Source of the DNA: Balanoglossus misakiensis
Taxonomy: Eukaryota; Animalia; Hemichordata
Length of the DNA stretch: 64,000 nt
Direction of reading: 5' to 3'
Assembly (NCBI GenBank): GCA_040954595.2
Contig: CM082588.2
Span: 7,018,202-7,082,201 of the forward strand
Program-made: the position numbers and the translations under genes
Notes under the pieces: model-generated
Told to the model about the DNA's origin: nothing
Seen by the model: only the letters and a program-made list of their open reading frames with translations
The model's database searches: none
Part shown: positions 28,498 to 63,275 of the stretch, one piece after another
Numbering within the stretch: the stretch's first letter is position 1
Layout of the letters: each line of letters starts with the position of its first letter

Positions 28498-29700
28498 TTA
28501 GTTTTTTTCCTGTTCAGATAACATTGCTTTGTACTCCTGTGCCCACTTGCCCCAGACATACTCCTGACCACAGGCTTCTGTTATGTTTAGGTATTTCAGT
28601 GCATTGGCAGAGTCATCTTGTTCTTGGTAAGCGTCGGCAAGATGATAACATGCCCATAGTATGTAATGTGGGTCAGAGAGGGTGGTGATCAGATGGGTAC
28701 ATATTTCACATGCATCACTGTACTGTTTCAAGTATATGAGGGCAACGGCCTTCGCGAGAGAAGCAGAGGGATACAAACCACCTGCATATGCAACTGCTTT
28801 GTCGAAACACTCTATGGCTTTTAACAGGCACTGGCGATTGCTTTCTATCGGATTGTGTCGGTATTTGTTCACGTATGTGGCTCCTAGGTTCCTCGCGAAA
28901 TATGGATTGTCTGGATCTTGTGCCGCAGCATTGTGAATAACTCGCAGTGCTTTTTCGAAGTCTCCAACATTTCTGTGGCAGTAATAAAGACGTGCAGACT
29001 CCACCGTGAAATGGGATAAAGGGGTTAATTCGAGTGCTTTCTGAATGAGTTGACCTGCTTCTTCATAGCGACCTTCATTGAGTGACAGCTCACTTAAAAG
29101 TGCCAAAGCATAGCTGTGATGGGCATTTTTCTTAAGAACTCTCTCAAGCAAATTTCTTTCTTGTGCCATTATTTGTAAAGCTTCCTTACATTTTGAATTT
29201 CCATAGACACGATTATCTTTTCGTGAAAGAATGAATGCTTGCCAAAACAGCCAATCTGTTTGTTCTGGAAGTTCTACTGAAGCACGATCAAAGCTATCAA
29301 CTCCCTCATCACACGTTTTCTTGATAAAATAAGCAAGAGAGACACCCTTGTGAGCATATACATACGCTTTCTGTTTCCCTGACAATTTATCAAGTGACAA
29401 AGTTTCTATCAACTTTAGCGTTTCATCAACTCTCTCCATCTCACCCGACATGAAATGAACCCATGCTTTATCTGCAAGAAGAACCAACTTATCACCAAGT
29501 GGACCATCGTCGTCACCATCACAGCTGTCGAGTTCTTTCTGGTTGTCGGTGAGGGCGTCATCAAACCACTTCAAAGCGGCACTTGGATCTCTCTTGTCTT
29601 CTGATCTCAGTTTGGACATGTACAGGTAACCTTTCATGGCTTTAAGGGAAACTGGAGAGAACTCCTGGTTGTGATATTTAAGGGTGTTGTCCAATTTGCA
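28498..29700 (-). CDS. Terminal exon: IFIT-like tetratricopeptide-repeat region (copy 1)
   Basis: The preceding exon gives LQRFPCHFTWKL (IFIT N-terminal CHFTW hallmark). LVLLADKAWVHFMSGE resembles IFIT LVTWGNYAWVYYHM, and HKGVSLAYF...FDRASVELPE resembles EKGWALLKF...FEKALEVEPD. Multiple TPR helix pairs. Confidence 0.8.
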   Translation of the reverse strand, partial: CKLDNTLKYHNQEFSPVSLKAMKGYLYMSKLRSEDKRDPSAALKWFDDALTDNQKELDSCDGDDDGPLGDKLVLLADKAWVHFMSGEMERVDETLKLIETLSLDKLSGKQKAYVYAHKGVSLAYFIKKTCDEGVDSFDRASVELPEQTDWLFWQAFILSRKDNRVYGNSKCKEALQIMAQERNLLERVLKKNAHHSYALALLSELSLNEGRYEEAGQLIQKALELTPLSHFTVESARLYYCHRNVGDFEKALRVIHNAAAQDPDNPYFARNLGATYVNKYRHNPIESNRQCLLKAIECFDKAVAYAGGLYPSASLAKAVALIYLKQYSDACEICTHLITTLSDPHYILWACYHLADAYQEQDDSANALKYLNITEACGQEYVWGKWAQEYKAMLSEQEKN

Positions 29701-32700
29701 CTGTAAGAACTACAGTACATGGAAAGGCATGTTATATTGTCACGTGCAAACCTCGGGTCTCAGGCTCATTAACTCACATAATATAAGAGCTTCAACTGAC
29801 ATAAACATTCGACAAATAACATTTTACACTTTAAATGATGTGAAAATATAGAAATAATGAATGACGCCCTGACCATTAACGTTTGTTTATGGGCAAGGGC
29901 GAGGGGAAAGCCAAAAATTCATGGGCAAGGCTTTTTTTCGAGCCCGAGCCCATAAACAAACGTTAATGGTCAGGGCGGAGTCGGTCATTTCCATTATATT
30001 GCCAACGAACTCAAGAAAACCGTCAAAATTTATGAAAATGTCCCACGCAAAAGACTAGGGGCCTGTAACTTGTGTTACGCAAAATGTTGTATTCACTGAA
30101 CTGTTTGCTAAAATTATTATTCAGATTTTATACGGGCATGTAAACAAACCATTACTGAGTATTTGTGGTCAGTGACGTCATTCATCTTGACCAATTAAAA
30201 TGCAGCGCACAGGCCATGGTAATATAATTAGGTATTCAGGATGTTTCTTTTCGCGTTTCAATTAACTTTAGGGGATAACTTATTATCCTCAATGGAATAG
30301 TTGTTAAACATTTTCTTAATTTTATGATATTCCAACCAACACAGATGTAATGAAACGCTATTTATTATAAACTTCCAAAAAACATCAATGAAAGTCCTCA
30401 CCTCAAAACTATGGTCACAAAATTCTTCTAGTTTCCAGGTAAAGTGGCAGGGAAACCTCTGCAGTATTTCTTCATAGGACTTTGCTGTATCCTTCAATCC
30501 CGTTATGTGTGTAACTGAAAATTCTATTGAATAGTAAAAACAAAGTTTGGAATTTAAACTGATTTCACGATTTTAATTTTAAATTGAGATTGGTCTATTG
30601 AAATTAGCTTTTATTTATTATGGTATGCCTACATTTTATGAGAGAGTTGCGTTGTATCAAACAGTGAATGAAACAACATAAATATCTATCAGCGCAACAA
30701 CATAAATATCTATCAAAAGAAACTAAAACAACCAAAATAACGTCAATATTGAGTGATCTTGTTCGTTCAGTTTTTTGAAGCAATATTCCCGTGGGAAAAT
30801 CAGTTGAAAACTAATAATTGAGTTTAAAAATAAATATTCCAGACGATGTTAAAGGTATACCAGTCACCTATGGAAAATTAGCTATAGTTACCATGGCAAA
30901 TTGAGATCTAGCCAATCACAGATTTTCAGTGGGTGGCACATGGGAAAAAAGAGCGCCGTCATATGTTCTTTAGAACGATCAAATACCCCATTTCAGCCAT
31001 ATATGGGCAATTGTGTAAATTGGACGTGACTGTATAATCATTTTGCAAAGATTGTCAATTGCAGGAAAGAAAGGGAAGATTTTGAGACCAAACTCTTAAA
31101 TTTGCTTTTGCTCCTAGACCCAACAAATCTGTAAAAGAAATTAAATTCAGCCTTTCAGGGTCATGTATACTTTCATAATCGAAGTTGTTAGGGGCAGATT
31201 CTTTTTTTTCATTAGGAGCAGATGATATAACTGATGCATGGATATGTTGCACATAACTACATTACCTTCGATGTTCTTGTCTACAGGTGGCGCAGTTGCA
31301 GTTTTCGTTTCCTTAAGTTCGTCGATAGTCTGAAGTAACTGCCGATTTTTGTCCATGGTCGTTTGATTTTCCTCTTTCAGTTTGATATTTATCATGGTTA
31401 GTTTCGAACTTTGGTTTTCACTGCTCTTCAGCATTTCCTTCAGACGCTGACTTGTCTGCTCACTTTCTTCACCAAGAACACGAATTCTTCCTTCACTTTC
31501 TCTCTTAAGAAGCGTATATTCCCTCTCCTTGGATTGTAGTATGTCTTGAATCTTCTTGTTTTCATTAAAGAGCGAAGTGATGACGGAGAGATAGTTGTCT
31601 GTCGAGATTGGTTCCAAGACACGAGCAGCTCCTTCTTTTGAAATAGATTCCGCCAGAATCTTGTCCGATTCTTTGGTGCCAGTTTTCAAGATGTTGACGC
31701 CACTTTGATTGACCAATCTCTTCATTTCTGATGAAAATGTGATTCAATATTGTTAGCAAAATGTTATATATGATCGATACAATGTAACCCCCTTTGCAAT
31801 TGGGTCGGAGGCAATAGAATGCAAATAAATGGGCACTATCTATTTTAGTTTATGCTCGATGTGCAAATCAATGGGAGAACAGTACAGACCTATCTTTAGA
31901 ATCAAACTTCAACAAGCAGCCAACTAAAGAAAAACATTCCCTTAATAAAACAAATTTCAGCAGCAAGCTTATTTGTTTTGATTGATTGAATAGAGTATTG
32001 TTTGACCAACTTCCATGCCTAAATGTTTGTGAACACTAACCTTCTCTATCATATCTGAATGTCTCTCCCTCTTGTAAAGTGATCGAAGACAACTGTTGGC
32101 TATCCAAAACCAAACACCGTCTGATTCCAAGGACACCAAGAACTTCTGGCCGTTCATCCAACAACGAAGACAGCTGTAGAGGGCGCTGTATTTTTATCAA
32201 CAGTACGATTGGTGTCTGTGTGTCTCCCACATCAACATCTATCTCAGCTTCCAAAGTGCCGGAACCACCAAGTAGTTTTGATAAACCGATTCTGTTTTGG
32301 CGTGTGGCATAGACATGTCGATCAACCTCCAAGGCAACCATTGCACTATTGTCATCTGCAGGTACAAAGATCGATAATAGGCAAAATAAATTGTATGTAT
32401 TCTCATTAAAATGAGCACATGTTTTACTGAATAGTGGAGTATACTTTTTATGCAAACATTTCAAACAAATGGATTATCAGCTGGAAACATAAGAACCTAT
32501 GGAGGCGTTCAAAATATCACAATATGTCATATCATATCTGTAAGCACTTGCCTGGTTCAATCAGAATATCTTCAAGTTCTGAACACTTCTCTCCACATAT
32601 TTCACAGATGTCAGCCGATTTCACTTCCGGGACAAAACCTACAAAGATATACGTCAACGTCATGAGATGTTTTATTTACTACATCTCCTATTTACAAGTC

Positions 32701-35442
32701 GGACAAGTATTTTGTGATGGTGAGAAAGTCATTATCGGGCATTGTAAATACGTGTTTGATAAGAAATTTAAGGCAAAATAAAAAAATGTGCTGTTTCACT
32801 CTCCGTCGACCTACCCTACTTTTAGCCCGCCGACCCAAAACTTTTTAGAGCTTTGTATTAAACCGGAAGTAAAAATAACGATGTCAAATATACAAAATTT
32901 GTGAAAATTGCGAGAATCTCGCAAGAACTACGACTGCCAAAGATATAAAAAAATTGCAATAAAAAATTTCCCTAGTTACCTACCCTATTTTTGAAAACCA
33001 TGTAATCGGAACAGCACATATTTTTTTCATTTGGCCTAGCTATTAAAGTTGAGTACAAATGACTGCTCTGAAATCAGCTTACCTTCGTTCATGTACTTCA
33101 ATTCTGCTCGACACCGTCTATATCGCCACACCTCTATGGTTGTCTTAAGGGGAACATCTGATACATTCAATCTATGAAGCATAGATTCTTTGACGATATC
33201 AGCCTTGAATAGTTCCCCCAATCTCCCTTGTCTGTAGTCACTCCATAATTTCTCCAACGCCTCTGATGTCTGACATGCCAACACAACACACAGACACCCT
33301 TGCTTGATTTCCTGAATTGTGATTCCACCAACACTGTTCAGATACTCTTTCACCTTTGGGAAATCGTCTTCAGATTTGATGCTGTAAATTTCTCTTTCTA
33401 TGCGTTCAGCCTGATCTGCAGTCAAGTTGGCATTGTCGACGTAAATATGAATCTCGATATCCCCTGAAATAAAGTTTATCAATATTAATACATTGGCGTG
33501 AAATAATTTAACTTCAGCCTGAACTGCCATGTATTAAACATGCAAGGGATAAATCCACCATCTTTAAAATCTGTTGACCGCATTTAAATCTCAGGGCAGT
33601 TGAAAACCACTTTTGTTCGAAACATCCCATATACTAGTATTTAGATGGAGAAATCCATACATTGTATCGCGAGTGTGCTTACGTAATGAATATTTTACCT
33701 CGAGTTGTTCTGAAGGTATGTGTGTAAGTTTGTCCACCACCAGAAGCTTGTCCGTCGCTGTGGTCATCGTTACCATCTCCACTTTCAAACCCGTTGCCCG
33801 GTGGAAGATTTTCAGCCTGTCCTCCTGCGCTGTTGCCATTGGTGATCGAACTTCCTTGTTCCTGGACTGGGATTGTTTTCGGGTTGTCGACCCCTTGAAA
33901 GAGGGAAGAAAAAAGTGCAGGAATCTAAATGTCAACATCTTTTAATTTAGAATAATACATTTGTCAGTGTTTATTATGAAGCATGCAAATTTGATCTTAT
34001 ATCTACATGTGTAACACTTGGTCGTGATGCAAGATAGTTCTGATTAATCATGCAAATTTTAGTCTTAAGTTGACCACACTTTATGTCAGTTTTTTAGTCC
34101 TTTCATTCATGATCAGTGAAAATCTTAATGACATGTAATATTTTCTTCTTGAAGACAGTCATTATCATTTACCTTTTGAGGATTCTTCCCCAGGGTCTTC
34201 ACACTCTGCAGAACTAAGTGTAGAAGAATCCAGCAATTTCTTTTGTTGAACTGCAATGAAACCATCCTCTGCGGATTTATGAAGTGCTTTACTCAATTCT
34301 TGGGATGCGTGTTGAGCACGACCATATTTACACAGGATAGGCATGATGGTGTCTAACCATTTTTCACTTTCGCTATCGACATTTTGGCAGAGTCCAGTGT
34401 CACAAGACGGGACAGAGATGGCGGGGAAGTGTTCATCTATGAACGATGCAAGGCCTGATTGCTTTGGTTGTATTGTGGGCACACCGGCAGCACAAGACAT
34501 AAGACCGATCACACCAAATGGATCACCTTTAGTTGTGAATATTACCACGAGGTCACACTGCATCAGATCTTTCTTTAAGTGGTCCATCGATGCCTTGTTT
34601 GGATATAGCCGAATATTCAACAGGTGTGACGCGGCCATCTTCTCCAGTTTCTGCTGAAACATTTTGCATGGTGTTGATGTTACAAGTCCCCGGAATTTCC
34701 ACTTAGTCTTTTTATCGTAATAGTTAAAATGGTGAGCAACTTTTCCCATGCTACGTGCTGCTGCTTCGAATTCCTCCAGATCTTGCAGGCTTGATATTGT
34801 GTGTACAGACAGGACTTCTATTGTGTTCCCCAACTCTGAATTACTAGCTGGACGCTGACCAACACCCATCTTTGCCAAGGGAATGTACAGCTCATGCGCC
34901 ACTTCTGAATTCAGAGAAACTTGAATCTTCCTCTTGTAGTCATCGCATACTGATGGACCAACTGACAAAATGGCGGAAGCCGCATTGATATATTCCATAA
35001 TTTCACCATCAAGGATTTCCAAATCGGAAGGCTCCAAGCTCATGTTGTCTATCATATCCGACAAAACTGGAACGAATCTCGGAATCCCAAGATCCTTTTG
35101 AATACACTTCGCAACATCGGCAGTTCCGTTCGTGCAAGCAGTGCCATATATTGTTGTAATCGGGAGACATTTCTTCAACTCGGGGAATCGGTCAAGGTGA
35201 CAAATTAACCAGTCCCTTTGCGGTTTCTGATTTCTCTTGACAGTTGGAAGAATCAACTCCACTCCATGTTTGCTCGCGTCCTCCACCTCTTCGTCTGTTG
35301 CTTCCAAAACCATGAAGGAGACTTTATTTTCTCTGACAGCAAGGTCTATCGCTATTTGTCTTTCAGTGATACATGTTGCTATGTTACGCCTTCTTGGCCA
35401 CCATTCTTCTCCAACAACCAATACACGATTACTGTGAGACAT
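28498..35442 (-). CDS. Multidomain putative immune protein, copy 1 (1341 aa): GT4-like glycosyltransferase + TRADD-N-like + unknown domain + coiled coil + IFIT-like TPR
   Basis: Manually spliced exons 35442-34173, 33893-33699, 33463-33083, 32638-32552, 32355-32041, 31727-31266, 30514-30402, 29700-28498 total 4026 nt with an open frame. Splice sites are GT-AG except one GC-AG. Exon lengths are identical in copy 2. Confidence 0.85.
29847..30228. mobile_element. Copy-1-specific ~380-bp intronic insertion containing a long hairpin
   Basis: Inverted repeat gccctgaccattaacgtttgtttatgggc ... gcccataaacaaacgttaatggtcagggc (~29866-29976). Copy 2 lacks it and joins ttacactttaaatgatg almost directly to gatattcagcatg. 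Confidence 0.6.
30849..31035. mobile_element. Kolobok-like MITE copy in intron (shared with copy 2)
   Basis: ttaaaggtataccagtcacc...gtgactgtata; same internal sequence as 23577 in reverse orientation. Confidence 0.55.
31266..31727 (-). CDS. Exon: coiled-coil region (copy 1)
   Basis: E/K/Q/L-rich heptad-like stretch (LFNENKKIQDILQSKEREY...LKEENQTTMDKNRQLLQTIDELKE); 462 nt, phase 1-1. Confidence 0.75.
32768..33038. mobile_element. ~270-bp MITE in intron (also at ~47978-48246)
   Basis: Terminal inverted repeats taaggc(c)aaataaaaaaaatgtgctgttt ... gaacagcacatatttttttcatttggccta, present in both paralogs. Confidence 0.65.
33083..33463 (-). CDS. Exon: TRADD-N-like domain (copy 1)
   Basis: IQEIKQGCLCVVLACQTSEALEKLWSDYRQGRLGELFKADIV...LKTTIEVWRYRRCRAEL fits the G[SC]L...C.S...LE.LW.DY.SG.L...L.TTI...Y..C pattern I recall from TRADD-N-like domains of invertebrate NLR-type proteins. 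Confidence 0.7.
34173..35442 (-). CDS. Exon: GT4/GT-B glycosyltransferase-like domain (copy 1)
   Basis: N-terminal RVLVVGEEW...RQIAIDLA, internal AASAILSVGP and C-terminal DLMQCDLVVI...DPFGVIGL.SCAAGVPTI....SGLA resemble GT4 domains fused to invertebrate NLR-type proteins. Acceptor cttgtag|G-ATG. Confidence 0.8.
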
Positions 35443-36523
35443 CCTACAAGATGAATATACTACATGAATAAGATGCAAGATATGATTTTTCATTTTAGTG
35501 AACATAACACTGTTTTACACATTTTCTTGAACAATATGTGTTCATCCTACATGTAGTATGGTTGACATGTTTGTGTGTGTGGGCCTACATAGGTTGACTG
35601 TCACTGACACATATTTAATGTATACCAGAACACAGTGAAAACACCCCCTATTCTAATGGCAAAAGGGTCTAAAGCATTATGTATTTTTGGTTTGAACATA
35701 ATTTCGCTTCATTTGGTCACCCTCTCTTAGCAGGTCATTGACTGGGTCACTGGTTCTAGATTTATAGTCACTGGTTCTAGATTTATACGCAACATTAAAA
35801 TGGGGCAATCCATTAAGTCTTCTGTTTTACTTCCTTTACCACATATTTCATGATTTATATATTTTAAATCACACATTTTCTTATTTTTAAATTAAATTGG
35901 TTTTGTTACTTCACATGTTGAATTTATTAGTCCGAACACAGGATTGCTGATTCAAATTCATGATGGTTCATTTGAGGTCACCACCCCCTAAGCGACAACG
36001 CGTCATAGAAAGAGGTCAGCGATATACACAAAGGGTTTCTCACTCAATTGTGGCATTCCAAAAGTGAAAGAACGCGAAGTGAAAAAGAAGTCAAACAATC
36101 AACTGTCAAATAGTAAAGCATGCGAACATTAATGGTAGACTCAGGTCAAAGGTCATTAGTATTACACTGGTAGCATTGCTGGATATTCTGTCAATAAATT
36201 CACAGTGTGTACAACAAAATTGACGTCAACAATTTTGATTCAAAAGGTCAACTGAGTTCAGACCAACCTCCCACAAACAGAACAAAACTGTGCATATCAT
36301 GTTATTGTTAATGACGAGGAAGTACAAAATTATATCACTTACTTCGAGTCTTAAACGACCTTAAACTTCTAATTCCACATTTCAAACTAGAGTAAACAAA
36401 ATGACAGAGCACTAAGTGACCCAGTATACCATTACCTGTGAATGTTTTACCCAACCATTTGAAATTGTATTTTCTTGAAGTAAGTCGATACACATGGCAG
36501 CTACATTTTCTGTACTGAAATCA

Positions 36524-36590
36524 CAGCTGTTCCGCCGGGGGGAGGTGATATGTTAGTTTCCCCAATCCCCCCTCCCCGGCGGAACAGCTG
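36524..36590. repeat. GC-rich short inverted repeat (hairpin)
   Basis: cagctgttccgccggggggagg ... cctccccggcggaacagctg. Confidence 0.75.
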
Positions 36591-36860
36591 CGTTTCCACA
36601 GCTATAGGGTATATATAGGTCCAGGTCAAAGGTCGTGTACACCACAGGCGCGTGTATAGATGCTATATGTTATTTCTCAAGGTACAACGTATAGAGAGAA
36701 ATAAATGTTTTGTTGTTTCGTGAGGGCGCTGTTTATGGGAGTATGAATATCAAGTAGGTGGGGTTAATCAGGTCAGTCTACGCGCTACCACCGGCCAGTC
36801 AAGTCGCCTTGTGATCCGTTAAATTTTTCGCTCGTCGGTTGCCCCTCGTTCTCCTACGAA

Positions 36861-37574
36861 ATGTCAGCAGCTGATGGTAATCCCAACAACGATCCTGCCA
36901 TAGACATTCAGAGGATCATACAGGCGAACAACAACCAGTTGTTAGTATCCATCAATCAGCTAGTGACGGATAAAATGACTACGATGAAACAGGACTTGCA
37001 GTCCACTCAAGAAGTAGTAAATCGAGAGCAGATGGCGGAGATAAAGAAGATCAAGTTTGCGGAAGTTCCACGCTTCAAAAGAAAAGCCAACGAGGATCAA
37101 TACAAGCACAACTGTAAGGTGTTGGACACGTTGGACGATAGCAAAACCAGTATGGAGTTGAAGAATTTCGAAGATGCCAAGCTGAAACTCGCTAAAGGTA
37201 TTGACATGGTCAACCAAAGACAAAAACTTATATTGCTAGCAGATAGTTCTGACTTCGGTTGGGGAACAGCACTGGAATACCAGTCCCATGAGCTAGCAGA
37301 AGATAGTGATGACGAAAAAAGAATATGGAAGGCAGAAATGAGAGCGAGTCGAAAACTCAAAGAGAAGAAAAACAAGAAACCCCGCTTTTCGCAGAAGTCG
37401 GATTCTTTCAGCCAACAGACTGAACCAGCGACGAAACGGAACTCATTTGGAACGAGTCAGAGGCCCGGGGTATGTTTCGCCTGCGGGAAGGCGGGACACT
37501 ACAGGTCGGAATGTAGAGCGACGGTGGCGAGCACTACTGGTGGTGGTAATGGTAGTGGCGGCGGGAAGCCCTGA
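36861..37574 (+). CDS. Gag-like protein with CCHC zinc knuckle
   Basis: CFACGKAGHYRSEC (C-x2-C-x4-H-x4-C); RQKLILLADSSDFGW...EY...LAEDSDDEKRI motif typical of this ORF1 type. Confidence 0.88.
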   Translation: MSAADGNPNNDPAIDIQRIIQANNNQLLVSINQLVTDKMTTMKQDLQSTQEVVNREQMAEIKKIKFAEVPRFKRKANEDQYKHNCKVLDTLDDSKTSMELKNFEDAKLKLAKGIDMVNQRQKLILLADSSDFGWGTALEYQSHELAEDSDDEKRIWKAEMRASRKLKEKKNKKPRFSQKSDSFSQQTEPATKRNSFGTSQRPGVCFACGKAGHYRSECRATVASTTGGGNGSGGGKP

Positions 37575-37583
37575 CTATATGGA

Positions 37584-39746
37584 ATGACAGAAGAATTGTC
37601 AACACAGTTAAGTACTGATATCCCATTTTCAGAAACTAGCGATGATGATGTAAACATGTTTAGCGATGGGGATTTTGATTCCTTGACGAGGGATGAACAT
37701 GGGTTCATTCATGTTTCATTGGTGGATTTTACCACTGTTTCACCCGGTTCTTTAGTTTTTGGTAGCCCGCCAAAATCAGTGAAAGTTCGGGGTTCTCTGC
37801 TGAAAAATCTTGCGTTTTGGCGCCAACACGCACCGCCGTCTATTGTTAGTGTGGTCCAGTTTGGCTACAAATTGCCACTTTTGTCTTTTCCCGCGCCCAT
37901 GTTTTCTCAGAACAATCGTTCTGCGCTGGTACATCGTGATTTCGTGGAATTTTCCATTCTCGATTTTTTAGATACGGGGGCTATCGAAGAAGTGCCTTCA
38001 CAGCCATATGTTTGCAATCCCATCTCAGTTTCTGTCAGTAGGGAGGGAAAGAAAAGGTTTATTTTGGATCTAAGGAGAGTTAATCTCTTTTTGTACAAGA
38101 ACAAGTTTAAGTGTGAAGACCTCAGGGTGGCCAAGGAATTTCTTGGTTCAGGTAAATTCTTGTTCAAGTTCGATCTCAAGTCAGGATATCATCATGTCGA
38201 AATTTTCCCGGAGCACCGTAAGTTTCTTGGTTTCGCCTGGGATTTTGATGAAGGCAGAAGATATTTCAAATTCTGTGTTTTGCCTTTCGGCCTAGCTACA
38301 GGCCCGTATATTTTTACCAAGTTACTTCGTCCAATTGTCAGGAAGTGGAGAGGAGAAGGTAAGTCAGTAGTGGTTTTTATTGATGATGGGCTGGGGGCCG
38401 CTGGTCCCTTTGAAAAAGCCTTAAAGGAAGCGGAACAGGTGAGATCAGATCTGGCAAAATTTGGTTTTATTACCAGTGAGCACAAATGCATATGGTTTCC
38501 TGTGCAAGTTTTGACATGGCTAGGCAATGTCATAAACATGGTAGAAGGTAAGTTGTTCATAACGATCGATAGAATCAGTAGATTGTTGAATTCAATTCAG
38601 AATTTGCTAGAGTTTACTAGATGCAATGCTTCAGTTCCTGTACGTAGACTAGCCCATGTGGTAGGGCAGATCATTTCCATGAGGTCAGGTGTAGGTAATA
38701 TCACCTTGCTTATGACACGACATCTGTATTTTGTGATCTGCAACAGACAATCCTGGAACAGTTTTGTTGGGTTGACAAAGCCTGCCATTAATGAACTAGA
38801 ATTTTGGCAGGCAAATCTAGGTAAGTTAAATGGCATGCCACTTTGGAATTGTTCCAAAGCAGAATCGGTCATATACTCGGACGCATCGCAAAATGCATAT
38901 GGAGGTTATATTGTTGAACACAGTAATGTGGTAGCTCACGGTAACTGGAGCACATATGAGTCGGAACAGAGTTCCACCTGGCGAGAATTACAAGCAGTGT
39001 ATAAAGTGCTGTTATCTATAGCCAGTTTTGTTGCGGGACGGCATGTCAAGTGGTTTACTGATAACCAAAACGTAGTGACAATTGTCAATAAGGGCAGTAT
39101 GAAACCTGAGTTACAGAAGATAGCTCTGGCAATTTTTGCAGTTTGCATGCAGTTTGGGATTTCAATCGAGCCAGAGTGGGTGCCTAGGTCAGCCAATGAG
39201 CGTGCAGATTACATAAGCAAGCTTGTGGATACAGACGATTGGTCAGTAAACTTGCGTTATTTCAAACTGTTGAGCAAGCATTGGGGACCGTTCCGGGTAG
39301 ATAGATTTGCATCATCATACAATGCTAAGTGCGTGATCTTCAATTCCCGGTTTTGGTGTCCTAATACAGCAGCAATGGATGCTTTTACACAAGATTGGGG
39401 GTCAGAGGTCAACTGGTTGGTACCACCTACATATCTAATAGGCAGGACATTAAGGCACCTCCAATTCTGCAAGGGAAAGGGAGCTTTGGTAATCCCGCTG
39501 TGGAGATCGGCCTATTTTTGGCCTTTGATTTGCCCTGATGGGGTGCATTTAGCTCCGTTCATACATGATTGGTTAGAATTACCAAGCAATGATCCATTAC
39601 TTTTCCTGCCAGGTAAGGGCAGAAATTCAGTCTTCGGTGGAAGACCACTCAGTTTTAGAGTACTTGCATTGTGGATAGATTTCAGCATTCCATGTCGAAT
39701 GTTCAATAAGGAATTTTCCACAGTTTACATGGGCAAGATGTGTTGA
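37584..39746 (+). CDS. Pol: reverse transcriptase + RNase H + DNA adenine methyltransferase-like domain
   Basis: RT: KKRFILDLR, FDLKSGYHH, LPFGL, FIDD (YxDD variant). RNase H: YSDAS, STWREL, FTDN, NERAD. MT-like: DRFAS...DAFTQDW...NWLVPP...LVIPLW. Confidence 0.93.
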   Translation: MTEELSTQLSTDIPFSETSDDDVNMFSDGDFDSLTRDEHGFIHVSLVDFTTVSPGSLVFGSPPKSVKVRGSLLKNLAFWRQHAPPSIVSVVQFGYKLPLLSFPAPMFSQNNRSALVHRDFVEFSILDFLDTGAIEEVPSQPYVCNPISVSVSREGKKRFILDLRRVNLFLYKNKFKCEDLRVAKEFLGSGKFLFKFDLKSGYHHVEIFPEHRKFLGFAWDFDEGRRYFKFCVLPFGLATGPYIFTKLLRPIVRKWRGEGKSVVVFIDDGLGAAGPFEKALKEAEQVRSDLAKFGFITSEHKCIWFPVQVLTWLGNVINMVEGKLFITIDRISRLLNSIQNLLEFTRCNASVPVRRLAHVVGQIISMRSGVGNITLLMTRHLYFVICNRQSWNSFVGLTKPAINELEFWQANLGKLNGMPLWNCSKAESVIYSDASQNAYGGYIVEHSNVVAHGNWSTYESEQSSTWRELQAVYKVLLSIASFVAGRHVKWFTDNQNVVTIVNKGSMKPELQKIALAIFAVCMQFGISIEPEWVPRSANERADYISKLVDTDDWSVNLRYFKLLSKHWGPFRVDRFASSYNAKCVIFNSRFWCPNTAAMDAFTQDWGSEVNWLVPPTYLIGRTLRHLQFCKGKGALVIPLWRSAYFWPLICPDGVHLAPFIHDWLELPSNDPLLFLPGKGRNSVFGGRPLSFRVLALWIDFSIPCRMFNKEFSTVYMGKMC

Positions 39747-39815
39747 CTGTTCCCCATAGTGGGAGGCTCTAGTGACCAGTCTAAGAAAGGGTCCATAGAA
39801 GCCTGATACTTCTGC

Positions 39816-40904: not shown

Positions 40905-43801
40905 TTTTAAAGGGTTGTCATTCTTTAGAGTTTGCCTTCACTTTCTTCCCCCTTCTGTGTGCAAGTCTATTGTTGTAATAAAGTTGCGGTGGTAGCGTAG
41001 CCACACACAGTAAAACTTGTGGTATGGCCTGTGTATTGTGTATTAGCCCAGGAGAAGAGACAAAACATGTTATTTCTCAAGGTACAACGTATAGAGAGAA
41101 ATAAATGTTTTGTTGTTTCGTGAGGGCGCTGTTTATGGGAGTATGAATATCAAGTAGGTGGGGTTAATCAGGTCAGTCTACGCGCTACCACCGGCCAGTC
41201 AAGTCGCCTTGTGATCCGTTAAATTTTTTAGTTTCTTTTCTTTTCTGTTTTGGTTCAGGGACCCAACGCTTTTTCAGAGGAATTTTCCCTATAAAAGGGT
41301 TTTATAAGCTCTGTTTTTTAGGGCGGGGTCTAGGCGTATTTTCTGAGCTGCCATGTAAGAGTTCAATTGTTGTATCACTATTGTTGTAATAAAGTTGCGG
41401 TGGTAGCGTAGCCACACACAGTAAAACTTGTGGTATGGCCTGTGTATTGTGTATTAGCCCAGGAGAAGAGACAAAACTTCAGTTTTTTTATGAATAAAAT
41501 CCCCCGAATTTGCGTCAAACGAGAGCTCTCGCTATGTTCGGGCCTAGGCCTATACCCCACTGACACATAAAGAAATTAAATGTGTCAGTGGGGTATAGGC
41601 CTAGGCCCGAACATAGCGAGAGCGCTCGTTTGACGCAAATTCGGGGGATTTTATTCATAAAAAACTGAAATAGCATCTATACACGCGCCTGTGGTGTACA
41701 CTACAGCTCCTGTTGGGGTTACTTACCTGTCGATTTGCACAGAATCGTGATTAGGTCTAATAGGATGTCCTCCCTTTGTGATTAAATGTGCCCAAGAGTG
41801 TCAGTCACATCAAGTGAACGCGAGAAATGTGATTCACAGGCGGACATCTACCGTGTTGTTGACTCGTACAGATTGCGGAAAAGGACAGTTACAGCCACAT
41901 ACTTGTTTAGCGACGCCATTGGTGCCTAGCCCAGTTTGGCCAAAACGAGGCTGGTTTCCAGGTCATTCGTGACAGGGCGCGCGTGCGCGTAGCAGTGTAG
42001 AGGGGGGGGGGGGGTTAGTAGAGGTCTATGTTTGAAGTCTTTTTTACAACAAGCGACTCGGACCTGGAGGAGGGGGGGGCAAGGTAGAGCTGGTGGACGT
42101 CGACCCTGCGTTTCTCTGATTGTCTCCTATTTGTGAATCTCCAAATACGGAGCGATGATATAAAATCTATATGCAACTCTGCATGAATTATGATCACTGT
42201 TTACGTCTTTTCGTGGGACATTTAATCCCAACAATTTCGCCATAGATCACCCTGAATGTTTTACCACTATATAGAAGAAGTTCACATTTATTGTTTGTTG
42301 TCCTAACTGGACACCTTGAATAACATGAAAGTTGATATGCAAAAAATTGCAATACAATAAACGTGTGACAAAAGAAATAAGACAACACACACTGCATCAA
42401 GCCCTGAATGAACCAATAACAATCAAGATATTTACTCTTAAAATCAATCATATAAAACTGTCGTCAAAACAGGCAATCAACAAATTGGTACTGTGACACT
42501 ATAGTTTACACCACAAGAAAACTGCTGATGGTAGCTATGATGTGTCACACGGAAAACTCAATATGTCACACATCACGTTCTTTAGTTATCTGAAATGTTC
42601 AAATACTAGTAGTATGGTACAATGGGTATGACTGATCAAAAACTTTACACTTGCGTGTCATTATCTTTTCAAACTTGAAAATCCCAATTACCGCCAGCCA
42701 TCGAAATACACTCACTGAATTGTAAACCACCTATCGTTCGTTGGTCTACAGTATGTGGATAGAAAAATGTACAACATGGCAAAGAACAGTAAAGGCTTAC
42801 AAGAAGAGTATATGAATCTGCAGAGGGCGCTATTTTCTCCTGTACCCAAACTCAACAAGAGTGGACACAGCTTTCCTTATAAATTAGTTGTGGTACCTTT
42901 TGTCATCTCTAGGTTCTTAAGTTACATTTTGCTAAAAATGAAAAATTCCCTGGCAAAATGAGTTTTTTTTTTTCAAATTAAAGTATGAACATTTTTTGCA
43001 ATGTTTAAACAAAAGCTTACAAAAACGACAACAACAGTTGAACACATTCTACAACTGAACTGATACAAGAGAAAACTATCTCCATACATTGGTGAAATAA
43101 ATCCAAAAGTAATGAATAGTGCAAACACAAAAACTAATTCAAATTCATCTACTGTAGAGCACACACGTGGTTATATGACACACAATTTATATATCCACAC
43201 ACACAATATTTACTGTGTTATGGGGAAAGCCAAATAACAAACTGTAAATAATATATATAACGCTTGGAAATATTGACAGCTAGAATTGTCGGTTTCCATG
43301 ACAACTCCAAAACGTTGCTAACAGTCAGAATAAACATTTCAGGAAACATTTCTAAAAAAAACACTTTTTACTGCGATGTATGTAGTTGGTTGAAAAGTGA
43401 CGTAAGCAACCACAAGATCGTTACAAACAATTCTTAAAACACACGGTAATGATATATCCCTCCATTGTTGATTCAAAATGATGTATGCTCACTAATTTGA
43501 CTGACCAAGCCACTATCCCCAGCTATACTCAAAGCCACACATGAACGTGTACATTATTGTGAACTTTCAACTTTTGAAGGGTGGGTTTCGGTTGATTGGA
43601 ACCTACAAAATTCATGACACACATATTATTACTATGGACAAACAATATTAGACAAAATTACTGACAACATTCATTTTGCAGGAGGCCTGTGGTTGGTTAA
43701 CATGCTTGAGGCTCCCAGGAAATGTTTTTTGGGGATCCCTAAATGATTTATTTCGTCACTTTCTAATTTGTAATTTTCTTTACTGCTGATTACAAGTTAA
43801 A

Positions 43802-45004
43802 TCATTTTTTTTTCTGTTCAAATAACCTTGCTTTGTACACCTGTGCATGCTTGCCCCAGAAATACTCCTGACCACAGGCTTCTGTTATGTTTAGGTATTT
43901 CAGTGCATTGGCAGAGTCGTCTTGTTCTTGGTAAACGTGGGCAAGATTAGAACATGCCCATATTATGTGATATGGGTCAGAGAGGGTGCTGATCAGATGG
44001 GTATATATTTCACATGCATCACTGTACTGTTTCAAGTTTCTGAGGGCAATGGCCTTCAAGATAGAAGCAAGGGGATACAAACCACCTGCATATGCAACTG
44101 CTTTGTCATAACACTCTATGGCTTTTAACAGGAACTGACGATCGCTTTCTATCGGATTGAAATCGTCTTTGGCCTCGTATGTGAGTCCAAGGTCACACGC
44201 GAATAATGGATTTTCTGGATCTTGTGCCGCAGCATTGTGAATAAATCGCAGTGCTTTTTCGGAGTCTCCAACATTGCTGTGGCGGTAATAATAATGTGCA
44301 GAATTTACCGTGGGACTGGATAAAGGGGTTAATTTGAGAGCTTTCTGGATGAGTTGACCTGCTTCTTCATAGCGGCCTTCATCGAGTGACAGGTCACATA
44401 AAAGTGCCAAAGCATAGCTGTGATGGGCATTTTTCTTAAGAACTCTCTCAAGCAAATTTCTTTCTTTTGCCATTATTTGTAAGGCTTCCTTACAGTTTGA
44501 ATCTCCATAGACACGATCACATTTGAATAAAAGAGAGTATGCTTGCCAAAACATCCAATCTGTTTGTTCTGGAAGTTCTACTAAAGCACGATCAAAGCTA
44601 TCAATTCCCTCATCAAACGTTTTTTTGCGAAAATAAGAAAGAGAGACACCCTTGTGAGCATATACATACGCTTTCTGTTTCCCTGACAATTTATCAAGTG
44701 ACAAAGTTGCTATCAACTTCAGTGTTTCATCAACTCTGTCCATCTCACCCGACATGAAATGAACCCATGCTTTATCTGCAAGAAGAACCAACTTATCACC
44801 AAGTGGACCATCGTCGTCACCATCACAGCTGTCAAGTTCTTTCTGGTTGTCGGTGAGGGCGTCATCAAACCACTTCAAAGCGGCACTTGGATCTCTCTTG
44901 TCTTCTGATCTCAGTTTGGACACGTACAGGTAACCTTTGATAGCTTTATGGGGAACTGGAGAGAACTCCTGGTTGTGATATTTAAGGTTGTTGTCCAAAT
45001 CACT
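43802..45004 (-). CDS. Terminal exon: IFIT-like TPR region (copy 2)
   Basis: Paralog of 28498-29700; preceded by exon 45712-45600 encoding LQRFPCHFTWKL. Confidence 0.8.
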   Translation of the reverse strand, partial: SDLDNNLKYHNQEFSPVPHKAIKGYLYVSKLRSEDKRDPSAALKWFDDALTDNQKELDSCDGDDDGPLGDKLVLLADKAWVHFMSGEMDRVDETLKLIATLSLDKLSGKQKAYVYAHKGVSLSYFRKKTFDEGIDSFDRALVELPEQTDWMFWQAYSLLFKCDRVYGDSNCKEALQIMAKERNLLERVLKKNAHHSYALALLCDLSLDEGRYEEAGQLIQKALKLTPLSSPTVNSAHYYYRHSNVGDSEKALRFIHNAAAQDPENPLFACDLGLTYEAKDDFNPIESDRQFLLKAIECYDKAVAYAGGLYPLASILKAIALRNLKQYSDACEIYTHLISTLSDPYHIIWACSNLAHVYQEQDDSANALKYLNITEACGQEYFWGKHAQVYKARLFEQKKK

Positions 45005-48000
45005 CTGTAAGACCTACAGTACATGGAAAGGCATGTTATATTGTCATGTGAAAACCCAGGTGCTTGTACAGATGCTTTGTTGATCTTTTATTGATTGTAA
45101 TTAAGGTAGCTAAAAACAATAAGATCTCCCGATTTCACATCATACGAACGCTCACACTATGTTCGGGCCTATACCCCACTGACACATAAACAGATAAAGA
45201 AATCTCTTTATGTGTCAGTGGTGTGTAGGCTTGAACTTGTCGTATGACGCGAAATCGGGAGATCGTCTAAGCTACTGATTTATCGTTTATAGCCACCTTC
45301 CAATTAATAAAATACCTGTGTGTGAAAACATCAGACGCATGATTGAAACAAAATAAGATGTGATTGATGAAGAAAACTCTAATGATTGATAAATTTTTAA
45401 ATATTACACTTTAAATGATGCAAAAAGTGGATATTCAGCATGTTGCTTTTTATATTTCAATTTGCGTCATTATAAACATCTGAGAGGAATACACATTTCC
45501 TTGGTTTTCGTGACATTTCAACAATTCAGATACAGCTGTTATGAAACGCTTTAAAATTTCACAAACCTGTACTTCAAATACGCAAATAAATGTCCTCACC
45601 TCAAAACTCTTGTCACAAAATTCTTCGAGTTTCCAGGTAAAGTGGCAGGGAAACCTCTGCAGTAATTCTTCATAGGACTTTGATGTATGCTTCAATCCCG
45701 TTATGTGTGTAACTGAAAATTCTATTGAATAGTAAAAACAAAGTTTGGAATTTAAACTGATTTCACGATTTTAATTTTAAATTGAGATTGGTCTATTGAA
45801 ATTAGCTTTTATTTATTATGGTATGCCTACATTTTATGAGAGAGTTGAGTTGTATCAAACAGTGAATGAAACAACATAAATATCTATCAGCGCAACAACA
45901 TAAATATCTATCAAAAGAAACTAAAACAACCAAAACAATGTCAATATTGAGCGATTTTATTCATTCAGTTTATTGAAGCAATATTCCCTTGGGAAAATCA
46001 GTTGAAAACTAATAATTGAGTTTAAAAATAAATATTCCGGACCATGTTAAAGGTATACGGCCACCTATGGAAAATTAGCTATAGTTATCATTGCAAATTG
46101 AGATCTAGCCAATCACTGATTTTCAGTGGGTGGCACACGTGAAAAAAAGAGCCCCACTATATGTTCTTTAGAATGCCCAAATACTCCATTTCAGCCATAT
46201 ATGGGCGTATGTAAATTGGAGGTGACCATATAACTTTAAGTATATTATAATCATTTTGCAAAGATTGTCAATTGCAGGAAAGAAAGGGAAGATTTTGAGA
46301 CCGAACTCTAAAAATTTGCTTTTGTTCCTAGACCCAAGAAATCTGTAATAAAAAATAAATTCGGCCTTTCAGGGTCATACAATACATACTTTCATAATCA
46401 AAGTTGTCAGGAGCAGATTCTTTTTTTTCAATCGGAGCAGATGATATAACGGATGCATGGATATGTTGCACATTACCTTCGATGTTCTTGTCTACAGGTG
46501 GCGCAGTTGCAGTTTTCGTTTCCTGAAGTTCGTCGATAGTCTGAAGTAACTGCCGATTTTTGTCCATGGTCGTTTGATTTTCCTCTTTCAGTTTGATATT
46601 TATCATGGTTAGTTTCGAACTTTGGTTTTCACTGCTCTTCAGCATTTCCTTCAGACGCTGACTTGTCTGCTCACTTTCTTCACCAAGAACACGAATTCTT
46701 CCTTCACTTTCTCTCTTAAGGAGCGTATAATCCCTCTCCTTGGATTGTAGTATGTCTTGAATCTTCTTGTTTTCGTTAAAGAGCGAAGTGATGACAGAGA
46801 GATAGTTGTCTGTCGAGATTGGTTCCAAGACACGAGCAGCTCCTTCTCTTGAAATAGATTCCGCCAGAATCTTGTCCGATTCTTTGGTGCCAGTGTTCAA
46901 GATGTTGACGCCACTTTGATTGACAAGTCTCTTCAGTTCTGATGAAAAGGTGATTCAATATTGTTAGCAAAATGTTATATATGAATGATCTATACGATGT
47001 AACCCCCTTTGCAATTGGGTCGGAGGCAATAGAATGCAAATAAATAGGCACTATCTATTTTAGTTTATGCTCGATGTGCAAATCAATGGCAGACTAGTAC
47101 AGACCCATCTTTAGAATCAAACTTCAACAAGCAGCCAACTAAACCAAAACATTCCCTTCAGAACAAATTTCAGCAGCAAGCTAGTTTGTTTTGATTGATT
47201 GAATAGAGTATTGTTTGACCAACTTCCCTGCCTAATGTTTGTGAACACTAACCTTCTCTATCATATCTGAATGTCTCTCCCTCTGGTAAGGTGATCGAAG
47301 ACAACTGTTGGCTATCCAAAATCAAACACCGTCTGATTCCAAGGACACCAAGAACTTCTGGCCGTTCATCCAACAACGAAGACAACTGTAGAGGGCGCTG
47401 TATTCTTATCAACAGGACGATTGGTGTCTGTGTGTCTCCCACATCAACATCTATCTCAGCTTCCAAAGTGCCGGAACCACCAAGTAGTTTTGATAAACCG
47501 ATTCTGTTTTGGCGTGTGGCATAGACATGTCGATCAACCTCCAAGGCAACCATTGCACCATTGTCATCTGCAGGTACAAAGATCGATAATAGGCAAAATA
47601 AATTGTATGTATTCTCATTAAAATGAGCACATGTTTTACTGAATAGTGGAGTATACTTTTTATGCAAACATTTCAAACAAATGGATTATCAGCTAGAAAC
47701 ATAAGAACCTATGGAGGTATTCAAAATATCATATGTCATATCATATTCTGTAAGTACTTGCCTGGTTCAATCAGAATATCTTCAAGTTCTGAACATTTCT
47801 CTCCACATATTTCACAGATGTCAGCCGATTTCACTTCCGGGACAAAACCTACAAAGATATACGTCAACGTCATGAGATGTTTTATTTATTACATCTCCTA
47901 TTTACAAGTCGGACAAGTATTTTGTGATGGTGAGAAAGTCATTATCGGACATTGTAAATGCGTGTTTGATAAGAAATTTAAGGCCAAATAAAAAAAATGT

Positions 48001-50648
48001 GCTGTTTCACTCTCCGTTGACCTACCCTAATTTTAGCCCGCCAACCCAAAACTTTTTAGAGCTTCGTAAACCAAAAGTAAAAATATCGATGTCAAATATA
48101 CAAAATTTTTGAAAATTGCGAGAATCTCGCAAGAACTACGACTGCCAAAGATGTAAAAAATTGCAATAAAAAATTTCCCTACCTACCTACCCTATTTTTG
48201 AAAACCATGTAATCGGAACAGCACATATTTTTTTCATTTGGCCTAGGCTATTAAAGTTGACTACAAACGATTGCTCTGAAATCAGCCTACCTTCATTCAT
48301 GTACTTCAATTCTGCTCGACACCGTCTATATCGCCACACCTCTATGGTTGTCTTAAGGGGAACATCTGATACGTTTAATCTATGAAGCATAGATTCTGTG
48401 ACGATATCAGCCTTGAATAGTTCCCCCAATCTCCCTCGTCTGTAGTCACTCCATAATTTCTCCAACGCCTCTGATGTCTGACATGCCAATACAACACACA
48501 GACACCCTTGCTTGATTTCCTGAATTGTAATTCCACCAACGCTGTTCAGATACTCTTTCACCTTTGGGAAATCGTCTTCAGATTTGATGCTGTAAATTTC
48601 TCTTTCTATGCGTTCAGCCTGATCTGGAGTCAAGTTGGCATTGTCGACGTAAATATGAATCTCGATATCCCCTGAAATAAAGTTTATCAACATTAATACA
48701 TTGGCGTGAAATAATTTAACTTCAGCCTGACCACTCATGTATTTAACACGCAAGGGATAAATCCACCATCTTTAAAATCTGTTGACCGCATTTAAATCTC
48801 AGGGTGGGAGAAAACCACTTTTGTTCGAAACATCCCATATATTTAATAGATGGAGAAATACATATATTGTATTGTGAGTGTGCTTACGTAATGAATATTT
48901 TACCTCGAGTTGTTCTGAAGGTATGTGTGTAAGTTTGTCCACCACCAGAAGCTTGTCCGTCGCTGTGGTTATCGTTACCATCTCCACTTTCAAACCCGTT
49001 GCCCGGTGGAAGATTTTCACCCTGCCCTCCTGTGCTGTTGCCATTGGTGATCGAACTTCCTTGTTCCTGGCCTGGGATTGTTTTCGGGTTGTCGACCCCT
49101 TGAAAGAGGGAAGAAAAAATTGCAGGAATCTAAATGTCAACATCTTTTAATTTACAATAATACATTTGTCAGTGTTTATTATGAAGCATGCAAAATTTGA
49201 TCTTACATCTACATGTGTAACACTTGGTCGTGATGCAAGATAGTTCTGATTAATCATGCAAATTTTAGTCTTAAGTTGACCACACTTTATGTCGGTATTT
49301 TAGTCCTTTCATTCATGATCAGTGAAAATCTTAATGACATGTAATATTTTCTTCTTGAAGACAGTCATTATCGTTTACCTTTTGAGGATTCTTCCCCAGG
49401 GTCTTCACACTCTGCAGAACTAAGTGTAGAAGAATCCAGCAATTTCTTTTGTTGAACTGCAATGAAACCATTCTCTGCGGATTTATGAAGTGCTTTACTC
49501 AATTCTTGGGATGCGTGTTGAGCACGACCATATTTGCACAGGATAGGCATGATGGTGTCTAACCATTTTTCACTTTCGCTATCGACATTTTGGCAGAGTC
49601 CAGTGTCACATGACGGGACAGAGATGGCGGGGAAGTGTTCATCTATGAACGATGCAAGGCCTGATTGCTTTGGTTGTATTGTGGGCACACCGGCAGCACA
49701 AGACATAAGACCGATCACACCAAATGGATCACCTTTAGTTGTGAATATTACCACGAGGTCACACTGCATCAGATCTTTCTTTAAGTGGTCCATCGATTCC
49801 TTGTTTGGATATAGCCGAATATTCAACAGGTGTGACGCGGCCATCTTCTCCAGTTTCCGCTGAAACTTTTCGCATGGTGTTTGTGTTACAAGTCCTCTGA
49901 ACTTCCACTTTGTGTTGTTATCGGAGTAGTTAAAGTAGCGAGCTACTTTTCCCATGCTACGGGCTGCTGCTTCGAATTCCTTCAGATCTTGTAGACTTGA
50001 TATTGTGTGTACAGACAGGACTTCTATTGTGGTCCCCAACTCTGAATTACTAGCTGGACGCTGACCAACACCCATCTTTGCCAAGGGAATGTACAGCTCA
50101 TGCGCCACTTCTGAATTCAGAGAAGCTTGAATCTTCCTCTTGTAGTCATCGCATACTGATGGACCAACTGACAGAATGGCGGAAGCCGCATTGATGTATT
50201 CCATAATTTCACCATCAAGGATTTCCAAATCGGAAGGCTCCAAGCTCATGTTGTCTATCATATCCGACAAAACTGGAACGAATCTCGGAATCCCAAGATC
50301 TTTTTGAATACACCTTGCAACATCGGCAGTTCCGTTCTTGCAAGCAGTTCCATATATTGTTGTTATCGGTAGACATTTCTTCAACTCGGGGAATCGGTCA
50401 AGGTGACAAATTAACCAGTCCCTTTGCGGTTTCTGATTTCTCTTTACAGTTGGCAGAATCAACTCGACTCCATGTTTGCTCGCGTCCTCCACCTCTTCGT
50501 CAGTTGCTTCCAAAACCATGAAGGAGACTTTATTTTCTCTGACAGCAAGGTCTATCGCTAGTTGTCTTTCAGTGATACATGTTGCTATGTTACGTCTTCT
50601 CGGCCACCATTCTTCTCCAACAACCAATACACGATTACTGTGAGACAT
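43802..50648 (-). CDS. Multidomain putative immune protein, copy 2 (1341 aa): GT4-like + TRADD-N-like + unknown + coiled coil + IFIT-like TPR
   Basis: Exons 50648-49379, 49098-48904, 48671-48291, 47848-47762, 47567-47253, 46938-46477, 45712-45600, 45004-43802 total 4026 nt, with the same lengths and phases as copy 1 and a continuous frame. Confidence 0.85.
45101..45300. mobile_element. Diverged member of the same palindromic family as 41478-41701, in a copy-2 intron
   Basis: Shares ctatgttcgggcc...tataccccactgacacataaa ... tttatgtgtcagtgg; also has the inverted pair gatctcccgatttc / gaaatcgggagatc. Confidence 0.7.
46047..46239. mobile_element. Kolobok-like MITE, near-complete copy with TTAA at both ends
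   Basis: ttaaaggtatacggccacct ... aggtgaccatataactttaa (imperfect TIRs, TTAA flanks). Confidence 0.6.
48291..48671 (-). CDS. Exon: TRADD-N-like domain (copy 2)
   Basis: 3 aa differences from the copy 1 exon by manual comparison. Confidence 0.7.
49379..50648 (-). CDS. Exon: GT4-like glycosyltransferase domain (copy 2)
   Basis: Paralog of 34173-35442. Confidence 0.8.
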
Positions 50649-63269: not shown

Positions 63270-63275
63270 CTGTCA

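Follow-up and report, generated by a model that had tools for sequence, protein, structure and literature searches.

A window of 64,000 nucleotides from the acorn worm Balanoglossus misakiensis (assembly GCA_040954595.2, contig CM082588.2, forward-strand positions 7,018,202 to 7,082,201) carries on its minus strand two tandem copies, A and B, of a gene predicted to code for a GT4-conflict domain, a TRADD-like N-terminal (TRADD-N) domain, an alpha/beta domain named here domain X, a coiled coil and a domain of tetratricopeptide repeats (TPRs), in this order. Profile searches and structure predictions indicate that the TPR domain is truly homologous to IFIT proteins and not a generic TPR protein part. 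Most amino acid differences between the copies fall in this domain, where they gather on the helix face that forms its groove. In each copy eight exons join into a 4026-nucleotide (nt) open frame with a single terminal stop, coding for 1341 residues, which reproduces the gene model of a first-pass annotation made from the nucleotide sequence. The exons and the limits of the duplication are:

34173..35442, minus strand: copy A exon 1, GT4-conflict domain with degenerate donor-binding motifs (PF20706, E 1.8e-31; motif alignment)
33699..33893, minus strand: copy A exon 2, Gly/Ser/Asp-rich linker (no match in Pfam)
33083..33463, minus strand: copy A exon 3, TRADD-like N-terminal domain (PF20694, E 4.4e-9)
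32552..32638, minus strand: copy A exon 4, short, with a CxxC motif found likewise in the Ptychodera proteins, GC donor
32041..32355, minus strand: copy A exon 5, alpha/beta domain X (31-41% identity to homologues)
31266..31727, minus strand: copy A exon 6, helical region and predicted coiled coil (heptad pattern)
30402..30523, minus strand: copy A exon 7, first IFIT helix and CHFTW motif (acceptor 30523 or 30514)
28498..29709, minus strand: copy A exon 8, IFIT-fold TPR superhelix equivalent to IFIT5 33-429, and stop (acceptor 29709 or 29700)
49379..50648, minus strand: copy B exon 1, GT4-conflict domain (PF20706, E 1.9e-34)
48904..49098, minus strand: copy B exon 2, linker
48291..48671, minus strand: copy B exon 3, TRADD-N-like domain (97.6% nt identity with copy A exon 3)
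47762..47848, minus strand: copy B exon 4, GC donor
47253..47567, minus strand: copy B exon 5, domain X
46477..46938, minus strand: copy B exon 6, predicted coiled coil
45600..45721, minus strand: copy B exon 7, CHFTW motif (acceptor 45721 or 45712)
43802..45013, minus strand: copy B exon 8, IFIT-fold TPR domain and stop (acceptor 45013 or 45004; 90.9% nt identity with copy A)
26931..35459, unstranded: duplicated unit A, comprising the gene, its introns and about 1.5 kb of 3' flank (self-blastn against unit B)
42229..50665, unstranded: duplicated unit B (self-blastn against unit A, 92.8-94.5%)

All seven introns of each copy end in an AG acceptor and six start with a GT donor, the donor of intron 4 being GC in both copies. 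There are no indels between the exons of A and B, and all seven introns differ in length, intron 7 being mostly unalignable. Exons 7 and 8 have alternative in-frame acceptors 9 nt upstream (30523 and 29709 in copy A; 45721 and 45013 in copy B), whose use gives a coding length of 4035 or 4044 nt instead of 4026. The four acceptor combinations are indistinguishable by alignment score to three homologues; the long forms leave no gaps relative to the Ptychodera homologues at junctions 6 and 7, and the initial residue of the long exon 8 pairs with IFIT5 residue 33. Exon 7 of both copies encodes LQRFPCHFTWKL. Homology between the copies ends 17 nt ahead of the ATG, immediately 5' to an AG acceptor (35460-36630 compared with 50666 upward), and because it stops there the two copies probably have unrelated 5' introns and promoters. 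The Pfam domain search gives PF20706 and PF20694, in agreement with the GT4 and TRADD-N-like assignments of the first-pass annotation, together with TPR families in exon 8 and no match in exons 2, 4, 5 and 7. The coiled coil of exon 6 has hydrophobic residues at 12 of 26 a/d positions in the best heptad frame, plus sub-threshold Pfam matches.

The same join is found in other acorn worms. When longer proteins were searched with exon 8, seven of 7992 scored candidates matched, the top two being Ptychodera flava models with PF20706 (P0001 and P0002). These share 39% and 36% identity with copy A over about 1000 residues in the same domain order. Both stop early in the TPRs, and P0001 continues into the GT4 start of the next copy, a mis-joined model. 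Glandiceps talaboti XP_077977119.1 (P0009, 1613 residues) has the same full order with a complete TPR part and two copies of domain X. The unit of domain X and coiled coil occurs there in tandem (residues 692-804 and 907-1022) and also opens protein P0011; from this arrangement it appears to behave as a module. PF20706 is above cut-off in P0001, P0002 and P0009, as in copies A and B; PF20694 scores 36.5 bits in copy A exon 3 (cut-off 23.7) and stays below cut-off in the three homologues. The closest relatives of copies A and B are, without exception, from enteropneust hemichordates. The three RefSeq proteins are gene predictions, and their common join favours the earlier proposal of a single fused gene, so that each copy would be transcribed as one fused mRNA.

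Two structural alternatives bear on this gene model. The exons for GT4 and TRADD-N and those for the IFIT part could be separate adjacent genes, or the join could be a minor product. Shorter models do exist, P0011 starting at domain X and P0010 being devoid of the front half, and the mis-joined P0001 illustrates that predicted models may err. However, the junctions are canonical and phase-compatible in both copies, the introns are short (194-755 nt), the back half requires no exon with an in-frame ATG, and the same junctions are crossed by three database proteins from two genera, which leaves this possibility very improbable. Copies A and B might instead be divergent alleles set in tandem by the assembly, which would alter the copy number and not the architecture. 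Their introns and flanks diverge by 4.6-4.7%, a level that haplotypes of marine invertebrates can reach. Against this, most of intron 7 cannot be aligned, neither flank is related between the copies and the relatives likewise lie several per contig (P0001, P0002 and P0010; P0008 and P0009). We consider the allelic explanation improbable.

Identification of the TPR domain relies on a profile of 25 rows, none of them labelled vertebrate. Against the PDB this profile aligns with IFIT5 5-477 as a single stretch (E 3.9e-69) and with IFIT1 at E 4.5e-64. The best natural non-IFIT protein, OGT, comes at E 5e-38 in three partial stretches, and just two engineered consensus-TPR repeats, which sum 6-7 short stretches, stand above IFIT5. 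The structure of exon 8 predicted on the 25-row alignment (pLDDT 93) gives Foldseek TM scores of 0.73-0.82 to IFIT1 and IFIT5, other TPR proteins among those listed reaching at most 0.53. VIA yields Z 31.6-32.5 to IFIT1/5 (root mean square deviation 2.7-3.6 Å over about 375 residues) and Z 21.8 to Ctr9, residues 1-403 of the model being aligned onto IFIT5 33-429. The first helix and the CHFTW-type motif, encoded by exon 7 in both copies, align with IFIT5 residues 8-25. Atlas assigns the homologous stretch of P0001 to IFIT clusters in nine of ten rows. An HMMER search with the Glandiceps fragment P0008 led to 32 proteins, nine of them vertebrate (six named IFIT and three unnamed), and none carries the name TTC22. 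The profile, Foldseek and VIA comparisons thus uphold the first-pass view that this part is closer to IFIT1 and IFIT5 than to generic TPRs. The single-sequence comparisons are weak: the PDB search with exon 8 puts consensus TPRs on top and IFIT2 at E 0.002. The model predicted without alignment (pLDDT 58) gives IFITs the first ten Foldseek ranks, though narrowly, and in VIA its first place is not an IFIT. In the VIA representative library, in which no full-length IFIT1/5 chain is listed, Ctr9 (Z 21.8) precedes IFIT2 (20.2).

The domain shares with vertebrate IFIT1 and IFIT5 (PDB 5w5h, 5udi, 4hot, 4hor) the CHFTW start, a collinear match and the superhelix, and tandem gene copies are common to vertebrate IFITs and the acorn-worm fusion genes. 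It differs from IFIT1/5 in lying behind about 900 residues, in being split by an intron between exons 7 and 8, in having about 17% identity, in ending at the equivalent of IFIT5 429 and in a groove that varies between the copies. Vertebrate IFITs are described as stand-alone proteins whose coding region is essentially one exon, and in the sections of Liu 2013 available to us IFITs are limited to jawed vertebrates and three acorn-worm candidates are rejected (PMC3688568). An origin in jawed vertebrates is contradicted by our results because profile and predicted structure match end to end in an acorn worm; on these comparisons, proteins of the IFIT type predate the jawed vertebrates. The first-pass annotation had taken CHFTW and the superhelix as a vertebrate IFIT signature. 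The homology holds, the restriction to vertebrates does not: RefSeq labels many stand-alone proteins from hemichordates and sea cucumbers IFIT-like, although these labels are automatic.

Such stand-alone proteins (for instance XP_077997910.1, XP_070570677.1, XP_006812281.1 and XP_071814028.1, from hemichordates and sea cucumber) belong to the same family as the fusion. They differ from it by having no GT4 or TRADD-N domain, several have about 300 extra carboxyl-terminal residues and most retain more basic pocket residues. In a tree of 25 rows, copies A and B group with P0009, P0010 and P0011 at 100/100 support, within a set of 16 hemichordate rows (93/96), the fused clade being nested among stand-alone hemichordate IFIT-like proteins. 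The tree has a midpoint root and leaves out the fragments P0001, P0002, P0008, P0026 and P0028 as well as eight further matches. Three of the stand-alone hemichordate proteins (P0012, P0020 and P0039) carry 250-300 extra carboxyl-terminal residues with no convincing Pfam match, which finish in an N-x3-H or R-x2-H motif. These ends recall, in our assumption, HEPN RNases; if the resemblance is real, they would represent a second fusion of an IFIT with an effector.

The pocket by which IFIT5 holds RNA is poorly preserved in the fusion. Of the 21 RNA-contact residues of IFIT5 taken from the available parts of two papers (PMC9677429, PMC13197388), 18 could be mapped, R307, K415 and K426 being dropped as unmappable. 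Six of the sites are basic in the IFIT5 pocket (K150, R186, R253, K257, R260, R294). Two of these six are basic in copy A, none in copy B and one each in P0009, P0010 and P0011, compared with 3-5 in seven vertebrate rows. Stand-alone relatives have 1-5, versus 0-2 in the fused clade. The position of K150 is occupied by Tyr and that of R253 by Glu or Asn in the fusion copies, copy A keeping an Arg at the R186 position; across the fusion proteins the equivalents of K150, R253, K257, Q288 and R294 are lost. In IFIT5, K150M and R253M weaken RNA binding, according to the portion of the report consulted (PMC9677429). Triphosphate RNA binding of the IFIT5 type by the fusion proteins is unlikely because the basic pocket residues are mostly lost, and the capacity to bind 5'-triphosphate or cap-0 RNA suggested by the first-pass annotation becomes doubtful. 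Net charge was discarded as an argument against RNA binding, a conger IFIT being likewise at -13 and vertebrate IFITs not being separated by it.

Divergence between the copies is unevenly distributed. Residues 1-903 have 33 differences (dN 0.017, dS 0.070), whereas in the IFIT part 76 of 438 residues differ (dN 0.099, dS 0.068; Fisher p 6e-8). The nonsynonymous rate of the IFIT part is twice the intron divergence (96/1042 versus 101/2183, p 9e-7). In the distal TPRs it exceeds the pooled synonymous rate (81/659 versus 58/867, p 2e-4), a region that was picked after the windows had been viewed, and the early TPRs are near-invariant, with two changes in residues 984-1063. At the sites equivalent to the RNA contacts of IFIT5, 14 of 18 residues differ between copies. 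The proportion drops to 62 of 413 outside these sites (p 2e-8) and to 21 of 87 among the residues next to them (p 3e-5). When the site list is shifted by +1, +2 or -2, only 1-3 of 18 differ. An older 3' part spared by gene conversion was considered as the source of the TPR divergence and is disfavoured, since dS and the divergence of the 3' flank match the rest, even if intron 7 aligns poorly.

Several points temper a claim of diversifying selection. Measured against the synonymous sites of the same part, omega of the IFIT part is 1.44, which is not significant (p 0.23), and the comparison of its nonsynonymous rate with all synonymous sites is borderline (p 0.052). The statistics compare two sequences only, and the list of 18 sites, although taken from two papers, was compiled after the alignment had been viewed. 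Shifts of -4, -1, +3 and +4 score 7-11 of 18 (5-11 with -3 included). Because the shifted controls show helical periodicity, we assign the diversifying signal to one helix face, the groove, and not to those exact 18 residues.

The GT4 domain lacks most of the donor-binding residues. The Gly-Gly motif, whose loop we assign to the donor-binding residues of GT4 enzymes, is present in all 11 bacterial GT4 rows compared and missing in the four fused proteins that have this amino terminus. The GT4 Arg, again found in 11/11 bacterial rows, is absent from all five fused proteins, in which the E-x7-E motif of the 11 bacterial rows reads D-x7-M/L. In the part of the source that could be consulted, the Arg and Lys of GT4 enzymes hold the pyrophosphate and E-x7-E takes part in donor binding (PMC8760489). 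Since Gly-Gly, Arg and the second Glu are missing, the domain is probably a pseudoenzyme, inactive as a transferase. Other observations count against this view: an Asp stands in place of the first Glu in 5/5 proteins, the Lys is retained in two of five (copy B and P0009), some GT4s can do without one Glu according to the same partial source (PMC8760489), nine of the 11 bacterial rows are related actinobacterial GT4-conflict-type proteins, and the domain is under purifying selection between the copies (omega 0.19). The first-pass annotation had seen GT4 and TRADD-N as effectors; both domains are indeed present, but an effector role of GT4 is made doubtful by the loss of most donor-binding residues. 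The GT4 exon has no match in the PDB, its profile reaching only E 0.9. A word-index search with it among longer proteins gave none out of 5129 candidates, and this search misses P0002 and P0009, hence is uninformative on the range of the domain. For domain X, Atlas suggests TRADD-like_N with scores of 0.85-0.87, a lead only, and the hhalign comparison with exon 3 (11.2, shuffle mean 11.4) leaves a second TRADD-N unsupported; domain X is possibly a second TRADD-N-like domain.

The reading that we favour, and to which we give about an even chance, is a cytosolic receptor that senses through a variable IFIT groove and clusters through its coiled coil, with a TRADD-N signalling adaptor and a GT4 pseudoenzyme. 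The groove would bind a variable molecule of the invader, which could be a protein or peptide from a pathogen or a nucleic acid with a different modification. Plain 5'-triphosphate RNA is probably not the ligand because the basic pocket is gone. Once the ligand is bound, receptors would gather through the coiled coil, allowing the conserved TRADD-N region to recruit downstream adaptors and trigger immune or cell-death signalling, with GT4 probably serving as a non-catalytic scaffold or ligand-binding module. Ligand, clustering and signalling output are inferred. The sensor role proposed earlier for the IFIT-like part is probable, given that change is concentrated in this part and in its groove. 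Arrays of NLR-type genes combine a constant signalling front, a hypervariable repeat groove and tandem paralogues, and the fusion proteins resemble them in these three features. Tandem duplication would produce copies with different specificities, as in NLR arrays. These arrays have a NACHT/NB-ARC NTPase switch, whereas no exon of the acorn-worm gene model has a Pfam match to such an NTPase.

Other functional readings of the fusion can be confronted with these data. In a model along the lines of the first-pass annotation, the IFIT domain would sense foreign RNA 5' ends and trigger a catalytically active GT4 transferase, which would modify molecules of the invader or the host. The completeness of the IFIT fold over IFIT5 33-429, the Arg that copy A keeps at the R186 position, the conservation of GT4 (omega 0.19) and the proposal of GT4 as a conflict effector in the part of Kaur 2021 consulted (PMC8195603) are in its favour. 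The replacement of K150 by Tyr and of R253 by Glu or Asn, the basic sites reduced to 2/6 and 0/6 against 3-5 in the vertebrate rows, and a GT4 domain devoid of Gly-Gly, Arg and second Glu make it unlikely. A similarly unlikely reading is that of an integrated decoy, in which the IFIT domain would have given up binding of a microbial pattern and would mimic the stand-alone IFIT-like proteins, trap their viral antagonists and signal through TRADD-N. Such a decoy would agree with the position of the fused clade within stand-alone hemichordate IFIT-likes, with a basic pocket more eroded than in most of these relatives (0-2 versus 1-5 of 6) and with the fast diversification of the IFIT part; yet the variation lies inside the ligand groove and not on outer surfaces, and we know of no invertebrate IFIT antagonist. 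To a non-immune scaffold whose TPR part would be under relaxed constraint after duplication, as the whole-domain omega not significantly above 1 might suggest, we give very little credence: the changes cluster on the groove face and leave the early TPRs nearly unchanged, dN exceeds the intron divergence (p 9e-7), and every named domain comes from families involved in conflict or immunity.

Beyond the variable-groove receptor itself, we tentatively propose, with somewhat less than even confidence, that the IFIT fold is an old sensor module of deuterostomes, or older. In acorn worms one lineage of it would have been joined to a GT4/TRADD-N chassis, exchanging RNA-end binding for the role of an NLR-like receptor that has no NTPase and in which the former RNA pocket now forms the surface under diversifying selection. 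The stand-alone IFITs of vertebrates would in that case represent a single specialised branch of a wider sensor-signalling family predating interferon, and in the fusion the IFIT domain would supply the variable sensor of a signalling receptor instead of sequestering RNA on its own. A conserved yet seemingly inactive GT4 would challenge the view that all animal GT4-conflict domains are enzymatic effectors. Two natural variants that differ almost solely in the groove make the question of the ligand directly testable.

The front half of the fusion belongs to a known class of proteins. The accessible parts of Kaur 2021 (PMC8195603) describe GT4 and a TRADD-N of the DEDD2 clade as a constant region followed by variable carboxyl-terminal modules in hemichordates, amphioxus and cnidarians; these modules include leucine-rich repeats (LRRs) and TTC28-like TPR fusions. 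Of 149 matches in the Figure 4 source data of that paper, the first 30 include at least eight Branchiostoma rows reading 'GT4-GTase+TRADDN-DEDD2+TPRs', and the first 30 of 60 mentions include GT4+TRADD-N proteins from Saccoglossus that carry Bcl-2, LRR or ankyrin modules (PMC8195603). As far as these parts go, the proteins share with the acorn-worm genes the succession of GT4-conflict and TRADD-N, a lineage-specific tandem expansion and a retrotransposon next door, noted for that clade and seen likewise beside the present genes. Their TPRs are TTC28-like according to the text, one of the eight rows being so named, whereas the acorn-worm TPRs are of the IFIT type; the acorn-worm fusion has in addition domain X and the coiled coil, and an apparently inactive GT4. 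The word 'IFIT' gives no match in the main text, in supplement file 4 (part) or in supplement file 6 of that paper (PMC8195603), and among open-licence papers no report was found of a GT4/TRADD-N/IFIT fusion or of invertebrate IFIT homologues. The architecture had been presented in the first-pass annotation as undescribed. In its coarse form, GT4+TRADD-N+TPRs, it is already catalogued for amphioxus, with XP_019620789.1 as one example, and the IFIT-type sensor was not found in print in the material covered. The GT4/TRADD-N chassis is thus known, while the sensor of IFIT type, the diversification of its groove and the degeneration of the GT4 seem not to have been described before.

Between copies A and B lies an apparently intact tyrosine-recombinase retrotransposon (36667-41477, plus strand), with the following genes:

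36858-37571, plus strand: gag with a zinc knuckle
37575-39743, plus strand: reverse transcriptase, RNaseH and Dam-like methylase
39807-40901, plus strand: recombinase

Its split direct repeats are 100% identical (36667-36828 with 41067-41228; 40967-41066 with 41378-41477), and the insertion looks recent. We take its layout to be PAT-like, of the DIRS order. It is followed by a palindromic element resembling a miniature inverted-repeat transposable element (41478-41660), which is related to part of intron 7 of copy B. A dispersed repeat of 130-160 bp is found at four places (23574-23730, 30907-31036, 46084-46243 and 51334-51467), including intron 6 of both copies.

The gene pair is 5 kb away from an 88-bp satellite that occupies positions 1-23075 with about 262 copies at 95% match. 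An exon coding for a C-type lectin domain (24121-24486, minus strand; PF00059, E 7e-10) lies just downstream of copy A. On the other side of the pair, two similar Cys-rich exons are found on the plus strand in the 55691 and 58243 regions (55.4-55.9 kb and 58.2-60.65 kb). After the second comes a peptidase M15-like exon (60452-60646, plus strand; PF08291, E 6e-4, below cut-off), with which it possibly encodes a secreted peptidoglycan hydrolase. Exons of a cyclophilin-type gene (61388-63272, minus strand; PF00160) come next.

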